A DNA stretch of 64,000 nt from Octopus vulgaris. Its lineage: Eukaryota. Positions 8,128 through 59,623 of this stretch are shown piece by piece. The position numbers and the translations under genes were made by a program. Within the stretch, counting starts at the first letter, position 1. Every line of letters begins with the position of its first letter. The stretch is from the NCBI GenBank assembly GCA_951406725.2, contig OX597818.1:140492001-140556000 (forward strand). Reading direction: 5' to 3'. The notes below the pieces were generated by a model. That model saw nothing but the letters and a program-made list of their open reading frames with translations. It searched no databases and was not told where the DNA came from.

Positions 8128-9987
8128 CTTTATTTTAAGCAGCAGAAAATTCAACAAAATCTGTTACTCTGAGTTTCTCGTTGCCGTTCATCAGACAGTT
8201 TTTGCTAGAATGGAACATATATATTAATTCAATCTATACTCTTACAAACGCTACACCTTTAAAAAGAAATGGACTTGTTTGATTGGCCCTTTAGAAAAAA
8301 CGGTCAATCCTCGAGCGATAAACAAAAAGGTCAAAAATATATGTATATATATATAAAAACTTATAAAAATTATAAAATCCGAGGAAAATACCGAGGAAAA
8401 ACCTGTTGCCGTTAATGAAGACAGTACAAATTAATGCATAGAAATTAAACCTGTTATAAATACTGCAATACATATTTATATTAAAATCCACATATATATA
8501 TCAACATACACAAAAGGATGCGCGTAAACGCCATACATACACATACAGACGTATGAATATGAATCTAAATTATACACATAAAAGCATGTGTACATATATT
8601 CACGCAAACCGTCTCGCACGCAAGCTAAAATTCATCTATGTAGCAATTCTCATATACTGAGCAAGGAGGGGGAACGAAAGAAAGGGAAAGAGAGAAAAAG
8701 GAACGGAGGAGGGGTGGGGGAAAAAGCTTGTAGCTATGTTATTTGGCATCTATAGAGGCCTGTATACATACACAAGTTTGAATTGATACATATACATACC
8801 GTCGTGTATATGTGTGCTTAAGCACAAGCATACTTTCACTCACACATACACAGATACGCATGCTTACAAATACATATGCTTTGCTATACACAAACTTATA
8901 TAAACATTCTAAATTTGACAACATTGCTTTTTTTATAAAAAAACATTGCTTTTAAAAAATGGGTGCATTAATAAAAATATATACGAAAGACCTATAAAAT
9001 AAAATATAACATCCTATTTTGGGTCATTTATAAATAATCAAGGTAATATAAATAATCAAGGTAATCTTATGCAATACAATAACATGAAAACAAAGTTTGT
9101 AGGTTTTTCCTAATATATATGTAGAAACAATAAGACTTTGCTATAGGTCCGTTGTAGCTCTCAAGAGTCAAAATCAAAATCAAAAAATCAAAATACAAAA
9201 TATATACTCTATCCATATGGTATATTTATATTCGACATTTTAAATTTAGCCTTGTGCCTACATAAGTTCATTAATTCACTTCTTTGATTCAAAGAATTAT
9301 TGTCTTTGAATAATATATGCATTTTTTCTAATAAGCAAAGCCTGCACTTGAAATTATATTTGTAAGCTCCATGCCTGTATGGTGCCGCCCTGTCCAGAAT
9401 GCTCCATGTCACGTTGAAAGGTGGGCTTCCTTTTCTTTTAGTTCCCAGACATATTTTGCTAGGCTGGTTTTCTTTCTATTCTCTGGGTATTTAAAAGAAT
9501 TCTTATGAGAATAAAATCTTGTTTTAAATGAATTTTCTGAAGCCCCTGTGTATGTCTTGTATTCCGATGAGCCTTCCACTTGCACCTTGGCTCTATAAAC
9601 TACTCCTTTCACTAGACATTTCCCTTCTAACGGACAGGAGCTTTCGTTTTTGAAATTACATTTCTTAATGGGCTCGGCACCATGTCTAATCTCAATTAGC
9701 TTCCTATTATGTTGGCTAATGTAAGAGGCGAAATTTCTGCAACAAGAATAGCTAACCTTCAGGGTTCTTCTATTAAATATTCTGTAGAATTTATGACCCT
9801 GCCTAAAATGCTTAGAGACTAATCTCAAAAATTCCTTACCTATATTAGTCTTTACGGCCAAATTGAAAGCCGGGTTGAACCACAAAACTTTCCTAGTCCT
9901 AGTTCTTCGTGCAGCATTATTATTAGCATTAAGCTGGTTGAACTGGATCTTCTCCGAGAATCCACTATTCTTTAATGCGCTATCGTA
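8128..9987 (-). mobile_element. Penelope-like element, 5'-truncated copy (left palindrome arm) with frameshifted GIY-YIG ORF and about 1.1 kb 3' UTR/pLTR
   Basis: Reverse complement of 10016-11876; ORFs 9409-10140 and 9209-9412 are split by a 1-bp deletion (GGG at 9423-9425 vs CCCC at 10578-10581). Confidence 0.93.
8156..8203 (-). ncRNA. Minimal type I hammerhead ribozyme motif (mirror copy)
   Basis: Exact reverse complement of 11801-11848. Confidence 0.85.
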
Positions 9988-10015
9988 ATAAGGTGCAGCA
10001 TTATACACATATATA

Positions 10016-10795
10016 TACGATAGCGCATTAAAGAATAGTGGATTCTCGGAGAAGATCCAGTTCAACCAGCTTAATGCTAATAATAATGCTGCACGAAGAA
10101 CTAGGACTAGGAAAGTTTTGTGGTTCAACCCGGCTTTCAATTTGGCCGTAAAGACTAATATAGGTAAGGAATTTTTGAGATTAGTCTCTAAGCATTTTAG
10201 GCAGGGTCATAAATTCTACAGAATATTTAATAGAAGAACCCTGAAGGTTAGCTATTCTTGTTGCAGAAATTTCGCCTCTTACATTAGCCAACATAATAGG
10301 AAGCTAATTGAGATTAGACATGGTGCCGAGCCCATTAAGAAATGTAATTGCAAAAACGAAAGCTCCTGTCCGTTAGAAGGGAAATGTCTAGTGAAAGGAG
10401 TAGTTTATAGAGCCAAGGTGCAAGTGGAAGGCTCATCGGAATACAAGACATACACAGGGGCTTCAGAAAATTCATTTAAAACAAGATTTTATTCTCATAA
10501 GAATTCTTTTAAATACCCAGAGAATAGAAAGAAAACCAGCCTAGCAAAATATGTCTGGGAACTAAAAGAAAAGGAAGCCCCACCTTTCAACGTGACATGG
10601 AGCATTCTGGACAGGGCGGCACCATACAGGCATGGAGCTTACAAATATAATTTCAAGTGCAGGCTTTGCTTATTAGAAAAAATGCATATATTATTCAAAG
10701 ACAATAATTCTTTGAATCAAAGAAGTGAATTAATGAACTTATGTAGGCACAAGGCTAAATTTAAAATGTCGAATATAAATATACCATATGGATAG
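10016..10795 (+). pseudogene. C-terminal part of PLE polyprotein: RT thumb end, Cys-rich linker and GIY-YIG endonuclease; no RT catalytic core and no native start
   Basis: YDSALKNSGF...WFNPAF...CNCKNESSCPLEGKCL...GVVYRA...YTGASENSFKTRFYSH...CRLCLLEK...LNQRSE...CRH; the Cys pattern resembles Naiad-type PLEs (clade call needs phylogeny). Confidence 0.9.
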
Positions 10796-11800
10796 AGTAT
10801 ATATTTTGTATTTTGATTTTTTGATTTTGATTTTGACTCTTGAGAGCTACAACGGACCTATAGCAAAGTCTTATTGTTTCTACATATATATTAGGAAAAA
10901 CCTACAAACTTTGTTTTCATGTTATTGTATTGCATAAGATTACCTTGATTATTTATATTACCTTGATTATTTATAAATGACCCAAAATAGGATGTTATAT
11001 TTTATTTTATAGGTCTTTCGTATATATTTTTATTAATGCACCCATTTTTTAAAAGCAATGTTTTTTTATAAAAAAAGCAATGTTGTCAAATTTAGAATGT
11101 TTATATAAGTTTGTGTATAGCAAAGCATATGTATTTGTAAGCATGCGTATCTGTGTATGTGTGAGTGAAAGTATGCTTGTGCTTAAGCACACATATACAC
11201 GACGGTATGTATATGTATCAATTCAAACTTGTGTATGTATACAGGCCTCTATAGATGCCAAATAACATAGCTACAAGTTTTTTCCCCACCCCTCCTCCGT
11301 TCCTTTTTCTCTCTTTCCCTTTCTTTCGTTCCCCCTCCTTGCTCAGTATATGAGAATTGCTACATAGATGAATTTTAGCTTGCGTGCGAGACGGTTTGCG
11401 TGAATATATGTACACATGCTTTTATGTGTATAATTTAGATTCATATTCATACGTCTGTATGTGTATGTATGGCGTTTACGCGCATCCTTTTGTGTATGTT
11501 GATATATATATGTGGATTTTAATATAAATATGTATTGCAGTATTTATAACAGGTTTAATTTCTATGCATTAATTTGTACTGTCTTCATTAACGGCAACAG
11601 GTTTTTTCCTCGGTATTTTCCTCGGATTTTATAATTTTTATAAGTTTTTATATATATATACATATATTTTTGACCTTTTTGTTTATCGCTCGAAGATTGA
11701 CCGTTTTTTCTAAAGGGCCAATCAAACAAGTCCATTTCTTTTTAAAGGTGTAGCGTTTGTAAGAGTATAGATTGAATTAATATATATGTTCCATTCTAGC

Positions 11801-57372: not shown

Positions 57373-57475
57373 AATAATAATAATAATAATAATAATAATA
57401 ATAATAATAACAATAATAATAATAATAATAATAATAATAATAATAATAATAATAATAATAATAATAATAATAATA
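57373..57475. repeat. (AAT)n microsatellite
   Basis: Directly visible. Confidence 0.95.
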
Positions 57476-57868
57476 CTCGGATACTGTACCAGGCAGTGGC
57501 TCTCATGGCTTCTGATCTTAACTGATTGGAAGTGTTATCATGTACATTCTTTTGTCTTGGTATAAAAGATGGGCTACAGCAAATATTCTGCTCAATACCA
57601 CAGATTTGCTTGTCAGTTGTTTGACCTTAACCAGTTGAGCATGTCCCTTGGTGGCTGACGATATGTGTATCTCTGATCACGAGAAGATGTAGTTGGGGAG
57701 CATCATAGCCATGTGTTGAGAGGGATTCTTTGGGGTTTGGATAATTCACCTCTGGAAACATGGGTGTTTCGTTCAACATCCTTAAAGAACTTTTATTCAG
57801 GTACCTTTTGAGCGGGATGGGTTACTCGACCAGAAGAAAATTCTAACTAGGCCCCACCTGCAAGGTCA
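57476..57868 (-). mobile_element. Probable retroposon 3' fragment ending in an (ATT)n tail
   Basis: Higher-GC, high-complexity block abutting the (AAT)n tract; family not identified. Confidence 0.4.
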
Positions 57869-59432
57869 TTATATATATATATATATATGTAAAACCCAAA
57901 AGTCTCTTGGAGTGATTAACAGCTTGATTTTGGTGAAATGATATTGCTGTTTTTGTTGCCATTGGTGGTGGTGGTCGTGGTCGTCGTGACGATAGAGTTA
58001 TGTCCAAGGACAACAAAAATAATGTTATCAGAGACTCTGGCTGTGGCCATCCTATATTTACAGGAAAAGTGAATTTCAAAAACAATTTTAAAGACACTTC
58101 AGTGTAGTAGGGATAATTTTAACTTCTAGTTCTAAGAGATCTAAAGACGGAATATTCTTTCTTGTTGCTTCGGGAAGAGTGTATGTGAATCAGCAAAGTA
58201 GACACGAAATTGCATTTTACATGTATATTTCAGGAGACAAGGCTATAACAAATGCCTTTCATAATTGATCCAGGATTCCTATGTTCATCTTCAATCTAGA
58301 AAATTGTGGTGCCGGAAAATATTGGTAGGACTGATACAGAAACAATTTTTCTCTGGCACACTTCATGCAGTCAAATTCAAATAGATAGATAATGTGTGTG
58401 TGTGAGAGAGAGAGAGGGGGGGGGAGAGAGAATGAAATAGAGAGTGAGAGAACGAAAGAGAGAGATAGAGAAGGACAGACAGACACAGATCAACTGCTGG
58501 CATCTAATGGTAATATTTATAGTGACAGTTCGGATAAAAGGCAACGTTGTCCTCGGCAAGTTTTGAACCTGGATAGCTGGTACGAGAACACCAATAAATT
58601 ATATATCACCATCTGAAGACACCAGCGATTCTCCTCCTTTTATCCAATGAATAAATTCGAGTCGCTTCATTCCAATATTCGAGATCAAGAGTGCAGCTCA
58701 TTTTCCTTGCCTTAGTATCATTTTGTAAATGTTATCCAGATGCTAGCGTCTGAATCATATTAGTGACATTGATAACCATAATTTCATGCTATTTAAGTAC
58801 TACAAGATTTCGTTCATACCGCATATCCACACACTCACACACATGCACACACACTCACAAACACAAACAAACACACACATACGTGCATAGACACAAAGCA
58901 ATACACATAAATATAATAAAATTCTTTATTATATATATCGGGTTTCTTATTTGCATCAGTGGCATATACTACATTCTTTATCTTCATACAGAAAAAGCAC
59001 TATGTGTATGTGCGCATGAACGTGTGTATGTGGATGCGCGTGTGTCCATGTGTAAGTATATATATATATATATATATATATATATATATATATATATAGA
59101 GAGAGAGAGAGAGAGAGAATTTTATGGGACTTTATACAATGTTAATTTCATACGTCTTATTGATGTATGTGTGCGAGTGTGAGTGTGAGTCACTGTGTGT
59201 ACATGTGTGTGAGTGTGCATGTGCGTGTGTATGTAGGTTGGGATATATGTATATACATATTTGTATATATATATATACATATATATATATATATATATAC
59301 ATTTAGTTAAGTATATATATATATATATATATATACATACATATATATATATATATATATATATATATATATATATATATATATATATGTATGTATGTAT
59401 GTATGTATGTATATTCAAGTGATTTGTTCCTC

Positions 59433-59623
59433 GTTAGGGCATATGACTGGTTAGAAAGTTACTGCCGGTTTTGCGCCGATTATTGCACCTAACCGTAATT
59501 GCACACTCTTCAGACATTCACTGCCTGAAGAGTGATCAGTTGTGCTTCGGTGCAAGGTTTAGCATGAATTCTCCGGTAGCATTCTGAAAAATAATATGTG
59601 ATGGCCAGTAATATATTGCTCGA
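59433..59623. repeat. Small imperfect inverted repeat with back-to-back hammerhead-like motifs
   Basis: ttgcacc...cactcttcag / ctgaagagtg...ggtgcaa; CTGAAGA on both strands separated by 11 bp. Confidence 0.6.

Follow-up and report, generated by a model that had tools for sequence, protein, structure and literature searches.

Insertions of Penelope-like elements (PLEs) are often 5'-truncated, lie next to a copy in inverted orientation and carry a tail on one side (PMC8557442, PMC3846280), and head-to-head PLE palindromes have been ascribed to self-priming (Arkhipova et al. 2013, PMC3846280). In PLE reverse transcription, two internal start sites delimit the tail, and ribozyme cleavage is dispensable for insertion in vitro (Frangieh et al. 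2024, PMC11167929). The Hydra clade is defined by a CxCX5C linker, CxxC and CxH motifs around a conserved E and N, the motifs RWK and DKT, a canonical hammerhead and insertion into (TA)n (Craig et al. 2021, PMC8557442); the supplement to that work records Hydra families in (TA)n, and at the 5' end of Penelope-13_HM it notes an inverted copy that is itself 5'-truncated. For Schistosoma mansoni, Cervera and de la Pena (2014, PMC4209133) described pairs of minimal hammerheads that lie about 100-700 bp apart on opposite strands and are related to truncated PLEs. Retrozymes are described as direct tandems (PMC7229834; bioRxiv 10.64898/2026.07.22.740005). In this study, we have analysed a stretch of 64,000 nucleotides from Octopus vulgaris (assembly GCA_951406725.2, contig OX597818.1, positions 140,492,001 to 140,556,000; hereafter the window), a microsatellite-rich DNA of animal type (microsatellites masked over 7298 of the 64000 bases), which carries three inverted repeats, E1, E2 and E3.

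Our results lead us to propose that E1 is probably a 5'-truncated Hydra-clade PLE that meets its own inverted copy head-to-head, and E3 a likely old, decayed minimal form belonging to a different PLE family; each of the two probably arose in a single event where it now lies and did not spread as a palindrome. The fold-back features themselves, namely inverted 5'-truncated copies, tails, (TA)n targeting and opposite-strand pairs of hammerheads, are already published, and the set is mostly described architecture rather than a new element family. A preliminary description of this DNA had reported three inverted repeats with no obvious similarity to each other; all three are present (E1 at 8128-11876, E2 at 14751-15255, E3 at 59414-59624), and a blastn comparison among them gives no match. 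The parts of E1 are as follows.

8128..9987, minus strand: left arm, the inverted 3' part of the PLE with the endonuclease open reading frame (ORF), 3' untranslated region (UTR) and hammerhead; its outer end abuts (TA)n
8157..8202, minus strand: left type I hammerhead, core at 8194 (44.4 bits, E 7.7e-11)
9988..10015, no strand assigned: junction loop, 15 nt of extra left-arm element sequence (9988-10002) and 13 nt of TA/CA-rich filler (10003-10015)
10016..10795, plus strand: 5'-truncated open ORF of 259 aa, with the end of the reverse transcriptase (RT) thumb, the CxCX5C linker and a C-terminal endonuclease of GIY-YIG type
10016..11876, plus strand: right arm, the sense copy, with the ORF, about 1 kb of 3' UTR and the hammerhead
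11802..11847, plus strand: right type I hammerhead, core at 11810, GAAA at 11827, palindromic stem III, predicted cleavage after 11839
11877..11947, plus strand: candidate one-sided PLE tail, ending at (TA)n 108 nt past the cleavage site

The two arms of E1 are identical at 1860 of 1867 aligned columns (99.6%). They differ by two substitutions outside homopolymers (9653/10350 and 8310/11694), three single-base indels within homopolymers, one change beside a homopolymer run and one at the terminal TA overlap; in the left arm, the ORF shifts frame at 9425 and has Cys replaced by Phe at 9653. The left copy extends 15 nt further into the centre than the right and is followed there by the TA/CA-rich filler. 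As the two truncation points lie only 15 nt apart in 1.87 kb, self-copying fits the structure, and two independent insertions do not. With arms so alike, and with three of their differences being single-base indels in homopolymer runs, the palindrome might be thought a fold-back artefact of assembly or long reads; we consider this highly improbable, given that the mirror symmetry stops at the element's own 3' end with unrelated flanks beyond, that the two substitutions lie outside homopolymers, and that the asymmetry of the junction is element-specific. E1 is a young and clean palindrome of an architecture already described.

The coding part places E1 in the Hydra clade. The 259-aa ORF aligns to the C-termini of RT-bearing proteins of 478-854 aa, with 16 longer homologs at 35-56% identity, all of a size for RT plus endonuclease. 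The right arm carries the marks of the clade, CNCKNESSC (CxCX5C), CRLC (CxxC, before the conserved E) and CRH (CxH, after the conserved N), and the residues of these three motifs are invariant in the alignment of homologs. RWK/RWR and DKT are carried by the full-length homologs and are absent from the truncated E1 copy, which also lacks the RT core; the assignment to the clade is drawn from C-terminal motifs and homologs. Because Pfam gives no match for the E1 ORF, nor for three of its homologs, the endonuclease assignment likewise rests on homologs and motifs. A metagenome scan with the single protein returned 193 stretches, none of them a relative, and the viral contigs also held none. Compared with Hydra-2_Amil, Hydra-1_Obim and Penelope-13_HM, E1 is alike in the linker, the CxxC/CxH motifs, the hammerhead near the 3' end and the (TA)n setting. 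The hammerhead listed for Hydra-2_aMil agrees with that of E1 in the arms of stems I and III, whereas the one listed for Hydra-1_oBim, from Octopus bimaculoides, is unlike it (PMC8557442). The closest protein match is 56% identical. The RT core is absent from E1, its 3' UTR extends over about 1 kb and its hammerhead departs from that of Hydra-1_oBim; E1 is therefore a distinct Hydra PLE family, and it adds to the clade a very young, clean head-to-head insertion.

The hammerheads of E1 (8194 minus, 11810 plus) are copies of one motif, lying about 1 kb past the stop codon, and could be calibrated against a set of 78 Hydra relative loci, taken from the best 80 of 395 and mostly short contigs. A sense-strand type I hammerhead is found in 53 of these loci. 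The model built from them, in which 42 of the 46 distinct motifs are aligned, shows strong covariation (176 double changes, a level reached in 0 of 500 shuffles) and scores both E1 arms at 44.4 bits; cleavage at the position given above is predicted. Over 47 nt, the E1 motif shares 85% identity with the motifs of the relatives L001 and L002, and its unpaired first position of stem II is typical of the family, T.T being found in 22 of the 46 distinct motifs. Rfam gives no hammerhead family at E1, E2 or E3, nor anywhere in the window among the 150 of 187 matches listed; this silence is uninformative here, because the E1 hammerhead is also missed by Rfam.

The relatives also bear on where such elements end. 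Among 28 rows of 3' copies, 11 were usable (17 were dropped for a contig end or a weak match), and their 3' ends lie +38 to +54 past the cleavage site in four and +85 to +128 in the other seven. This suggests that Hydra 3' ends fall at two distances, about 40-55 and 85-130 nt, giving a tail longer than the published 30-40 nt. In E1 the left, shared end lies at +38 and the right arm runs 70 nt further, to (TA)n at +108; judged by the end positions of the relatives, the segment at 11877-11947 is likely a one-sided PLE tail, with host DNA as the alternative. If it is the tail, E1 abuts a (TA)n run at its right end as it does at its left. A further candidate for this segment, the start of an ORF (LVFEYS at 11892, profile p about 0.01), was rejected: the distance from cleavage site to Tyr is 167-206 nt in 26 of 27 relatives and 65 here, and there is no in-frame ATG.

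E3, the smallest of the palindromes, is decayed. It had been placed at 59433-59623, at about 0.19 kb; the palindrome exists and is slightly larger, as follows.

59414..59518, minus strand: left arm, a decayed hammerhead (core at 59513, UH at 59461-59460) and 46 nt, ending at a TA-type repeat
59520..59624, plus strand: right arm, a decayed hammerhead (core at 59525, UH at 59577-59578) and 46 nt, ending at a TA-type repeat

The E3 arms align in one gapless register, with 63 of 105 columns identical; in the outer 46 nt, 26 positions are identical (permutation p 2e-5), compared with 8-15 in other registers. Both arms keep CTGAAGA and the UA of the cleavage triplet, and the GAAA box has a different single change in each. 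Neither the strict hammerhead descriptor nor Rfam matches the single arms. We also applied an either-arm test, in which the base of either arm is allowed at each aligned column and the fit to the hammerhead descriptor is assessed; a pair at the base of stem II was not demanded, since E1 itself is unpaired there, and, as the test was run under varied settings (eight per element, then four), its p-values are nominal. Read in this way, the core of E3 is perfect and its three stems have 6, 5 and 3 pairs. Column shuffles reach this fit in 0 of 3000 cases, and shuffles with the core half held fixed do so in 1-53 of 20000 (each stem) or 58-695 of 20000 (total pairs). The stem III region, 7 nt and palindromic, has the commonest geometry among the relatives (34 of 63 motifs). 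Both arms end at +46 past the cleavage site, at TA-type repeats, a distance that compares with the +38 to +54 of four of the 11 relatives. The cores are only 11 nt apart, which puts the junction at the 5' edge of stem I.

A hammerhead reading by coincidence in a tiny palindromic miniature inverted-repeat transposable element (MITE) would account for single arms that are significant neither in Rfam nor against the model of the relatives; the left arm also has what we take to be a loose likeness to mariner-type termini. This origin is unlikely in the face of the either-arm result, with none of the 3000 column shuffles reaching the fit, the hammerhead geometry typical of relatives and the matching ends at +46. 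E3 is probably an old, decayed fold-back of a PLE end, that is, a minimal version of the insertion by-product seen in E1. Of its 20 stem pairs, 14 differ between the arms and nine of these 14 are broken in one arm, which fits the neutral decay of an old, once perfect palindrome.

Several observations weigh against this interpretation of E1 and E3. The candidate tail of E1, at 70 nt, exceeds the published tails of 30-40 nt. An outward-facing pair is seen only in L057 among the 78 relative loci, which are mostly short contigs where palindromes collapse. Scored alone against the relatives' model, the E3 arms reach 11.6 and 9.0 bits (E 1 and 6.7), which is not significant, and the stem II insert of E3 is 34 nt, compared with up to 25 nt in relatives. 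Its arms differ by 42 substitutions and no indel, where the rate in 14 other repeat pairs would predict about 3.4 indels (P about 0.03). G-U pairs are skewed to the plus strand (17 versus 5, p 0.017, one of nine such tests), and one stem I pair is fully compensatory (T-A versus C-G).

Some of these features would be expected of a non-autonomous element, E3 and perhaps also E2, whose entire palindrome was copied into RNA and reinserted, each polarity carrying one hammerhead, and whose arms diverged while the family was active. Arms that align without gaps at 60% identity, the plus-strand G-U skew, the compensatory stem I pair, the symmetric 46-nt ends, and core halves that are more alike (11 of 13) than the rest of the motif span all lean this way. 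We nevertheless consider such a family very unlikely. Each of the signals is weak or ascertained, the intact core being the reason why E3 was noticed at all; the stems are as diverged as the background, with the broken pairs described above; the GAAA box is broken in each arm; 20 of the 42 differences are transversions; and E3 has no second copy in the 64 kb. Moreover, a recurrent 5' boundary at stem I would give palindromes of the same size without any palindromic master. E2 also lacks a second copy within the window, E3 gives no match to the 78 relative loci, and degenerate patterns of E3 and E2 have no exact counterpart in viral contigs, a result that says little about an animal genome. A literature search within a limited library found no palindromic dual-hammerhead non-autonomous family, and the passages of PMC13282606 that were consulted make no mention of hammerheads.

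The arms of E3 also show an excess of C>T on the plus strand. ADAR editing was considered for the skew and rejected: of the seven transitions that can be polarised by hammerhead constraints, six are plus-strand C>T changes, and A>G is not represented.

Ambisense viroid-like RNAs and the plant retroviroid carry one hammerhead per polarity in a self-complementary unit. E3 differs from them in being known as a DNA palindrome without tandem copies, with both ribozymes broken. It is improbable to much the same degree as the palindromic family that E3 is the fossil of a 210-nt ambisense, viroid-like retrozyme mobilised by Hydra PLE machinery, whose arms diverged under selection on an RNA hairpin. 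Were a palindromic family real, an animal genome would encode an ambisense ribozyme element, a link between retrozymes and viroid-like RNAs. E2 and E3 resemble the non-long-terminal-repeat retrozymes in being short and non-coding, and may share with them a type I hammerhead and a likely PLE derivation (PMC7229834; bioRxiv 10.64898/2026.07.22.740005). Those elements, however, are direct tandem repeats with one ribozyme polarity, each unit with an intact type I hammerhead, whereas E2 and E3 are single inverted pairs in which we find no direct unit repeat and no intact motif. The dual hammerheads of Schistosoma mansoni share the arrangement and size range of E2 and E3, although the cores of E3 are only 11 nt apart; the passages of that report that were consulted do not dissect the junctions (PMC4209133).

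Alongside the ORF motifs, hammerhead, arm identity, junction and ends that are observed in E1, we infer a series of steps for the origin of the fold-backs. The element endonuclease would nick a (TA)n run, and reverse transcription would begin inside the element at either of two sites, located about 40-55 or 85-130 nt beyond the cleavage site. An early stop would leave the copy 5'-truncated, after which the new complementary DNA (cDNA) may fold back or switch template onto itself, giving the inverted second copy. The size of the palindrome would then be twice the length of the cDNA, with arms of 1.87 kb in E1 and 105 nt in E3. On this model the graded sizes of the fold-backs would follow from a variable truncation point, and the outward orientation of the ribozymes from the location of the motif close to the 3' end of the element, since this end lies outermost on both sides. 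Known head-to-head PLE insertions are alike in the inverted copy on the 5' side, the palindrome or hairpin at the junction and the optional tail at one end from two RT starts (PMC3846280, PMC11167929); they differ in tails of 30-40 nt, compared with about 70 nt for the candidate of E1, and the E3 arm retains no more than the ribozyme and 46 nt. The proposal that PLE fold-back insertion is the common mode here is supported for E1 and likely for E3, but "common" overstates it, since single-armed hammerheads and Hydra fragments also occur in the window.

In the relatives, 5' boundaries seem to recur at the 5' edge of stem I. Besides the junction of E3, this position is met in L010 (711-904), where an inverted 52-nt piece of 5' UTR that ends in (TA)n is attached 8 nt upstream of the core, and in L059 (1426) and L061 (2280), members of one family whose 5' starts lie 9 and 11 nt upstream of the core. 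L067 and L069 start further from the core, at 80 and 165 nt upstream, and the other seven of the 11 two-copy loci are cut by the contig start. L057 is bounded by inverted pseudo-long terminal repeats (pLTRs) with outward cores. A boundary at stem I would bear on how PLEs make inverted copies, and palindromes of the same size at many loci would not then prove propagation as a unit. As a practical warning, short PLE fold-backs may pass for MITEs.

E2, the middle palindrome, may fall outside the set formed by E1 and E3 altogether. Its parts are the following.

14751..14986, minus strand: left arm, with CTGAAAA at 14902-14908 and three palindromic copies of a TCTC(W)GARA-like motif
15012..15041, no strand assigned: local hairpin at the inverted junction
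15036..15255, plus strand: right arm, with CTGATGA at 15111; a hammerhead under relaxed rules only

Of 238 aligned columns in E2, 165 are identical between the arms if a stretch masked as microsatellite is scored as mismatch (69.6% by blastn). Hammerheads or hammerhead-like motifs on the minus strand of the left arm and the plus strand of the right arm had been described for all three palindromes. This is borne out in both arms of E1; in E3 each arm keeps the core half intact and has the GAAA half broken, and in E2 CTGATGA is present in the right arm only, the left-arm core site (14902-14908) having a change at G8. The relatives' hammerhead model gives no match to E2 at E<=10.

E2 can be put forward, tentatively, as a third PLE fold-back. 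In its favor, an either-arm fit of 4, 3 and 3 pairs is rare in core-fixed shuffles (12-128 of 20000 for each stem, 90-752 of 20000 for total pairs), and the small hairpin at the junction is as described for PLE inversions; to its detriment, the fit needs G-U pairs and the removal of a gap column. It is about equally conceivable that E2 is an old MITE with long terminal inverted repeats and TA ends, whose "core" is one of several palindromic motifs of the transposase-binding type. The inverted repeat ends exactly in TA on both sides, as a Hydra fold-back also would. The supposed core halves are two copies of one palindromic motif, agreeing at 13 of 15 positions in the left arm (1 of 60 shuffles), with a third copy near the end, and this internal repeat coincides with both core halves; the right arm, against a MITE, is without motif repeats at one mismatch. 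The failure of the hammerhead model to match and a right end 113 nt from any microsatellite also speak for a MITE, and the mariner transposase fossil at about 36300-36660 shows that such transposons occur in the window.

All three palindromes had been said to lie next to microsatellites. The left end of E1 and both ends of E3 do abut TA-type runs, but the right end of E1 lies 70 nt away, and the left and right ends of E2 lie 5 and 113 nt away. This adjacency is partly background, because 13% of random positions in the window lie within 5 nt of a TA-type run and 33% within 70 nt. The window-wide fold-back scan found E1 and E2 and missed E3, and is therefore not a complete census.

Other hammerheads and element fragments are present in the window. 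An intact type I hammerhead with its core at 1939 on the plus strand (34 bits, E 1.3e-7), without an inverted partner, lies in a unit at 1878-2100 (plus strand) that measures about 200 bp, is flanked by (TA)n runs and has a direct repeat of 12-13 nt at its ends; the unit is possibly a solo pLTR or a retrozyme monomer. Two copies of one repeat, 72% identical and beside microsatellites, are found at 35879-36052 and 28863-29030, both on the minus strand, each with a single-armed, degenerate minimal hammerhead-like motif (at 35993 and about 28970). Single-armed, older and broken pieces of other Hydra-type PLEs lie at 32079-32766 (plus) and 53490-53633 (minus), and GIY-YIG-like pieces of other PLE types at 36676-36996 and 40602-40946 (both plus), the first with a Pfam GIY-YIG match at E 0.02.

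The broken transposase fossil at 36300-36660 (plus) has an FHQDNAR motif, from which we take it to be of mariner type. On the minus strand, a reading frame at 4961-5314 has a Cys/His-rich motif at its end, which presumably corresponds to the C-terminus of an RTE-type long interspersed nuclear element (LINE). Finally, the segments at 16740-17134, 56280-56682 and 57040-57255 belong to a young dispersed repeat family, 91-96% identical.

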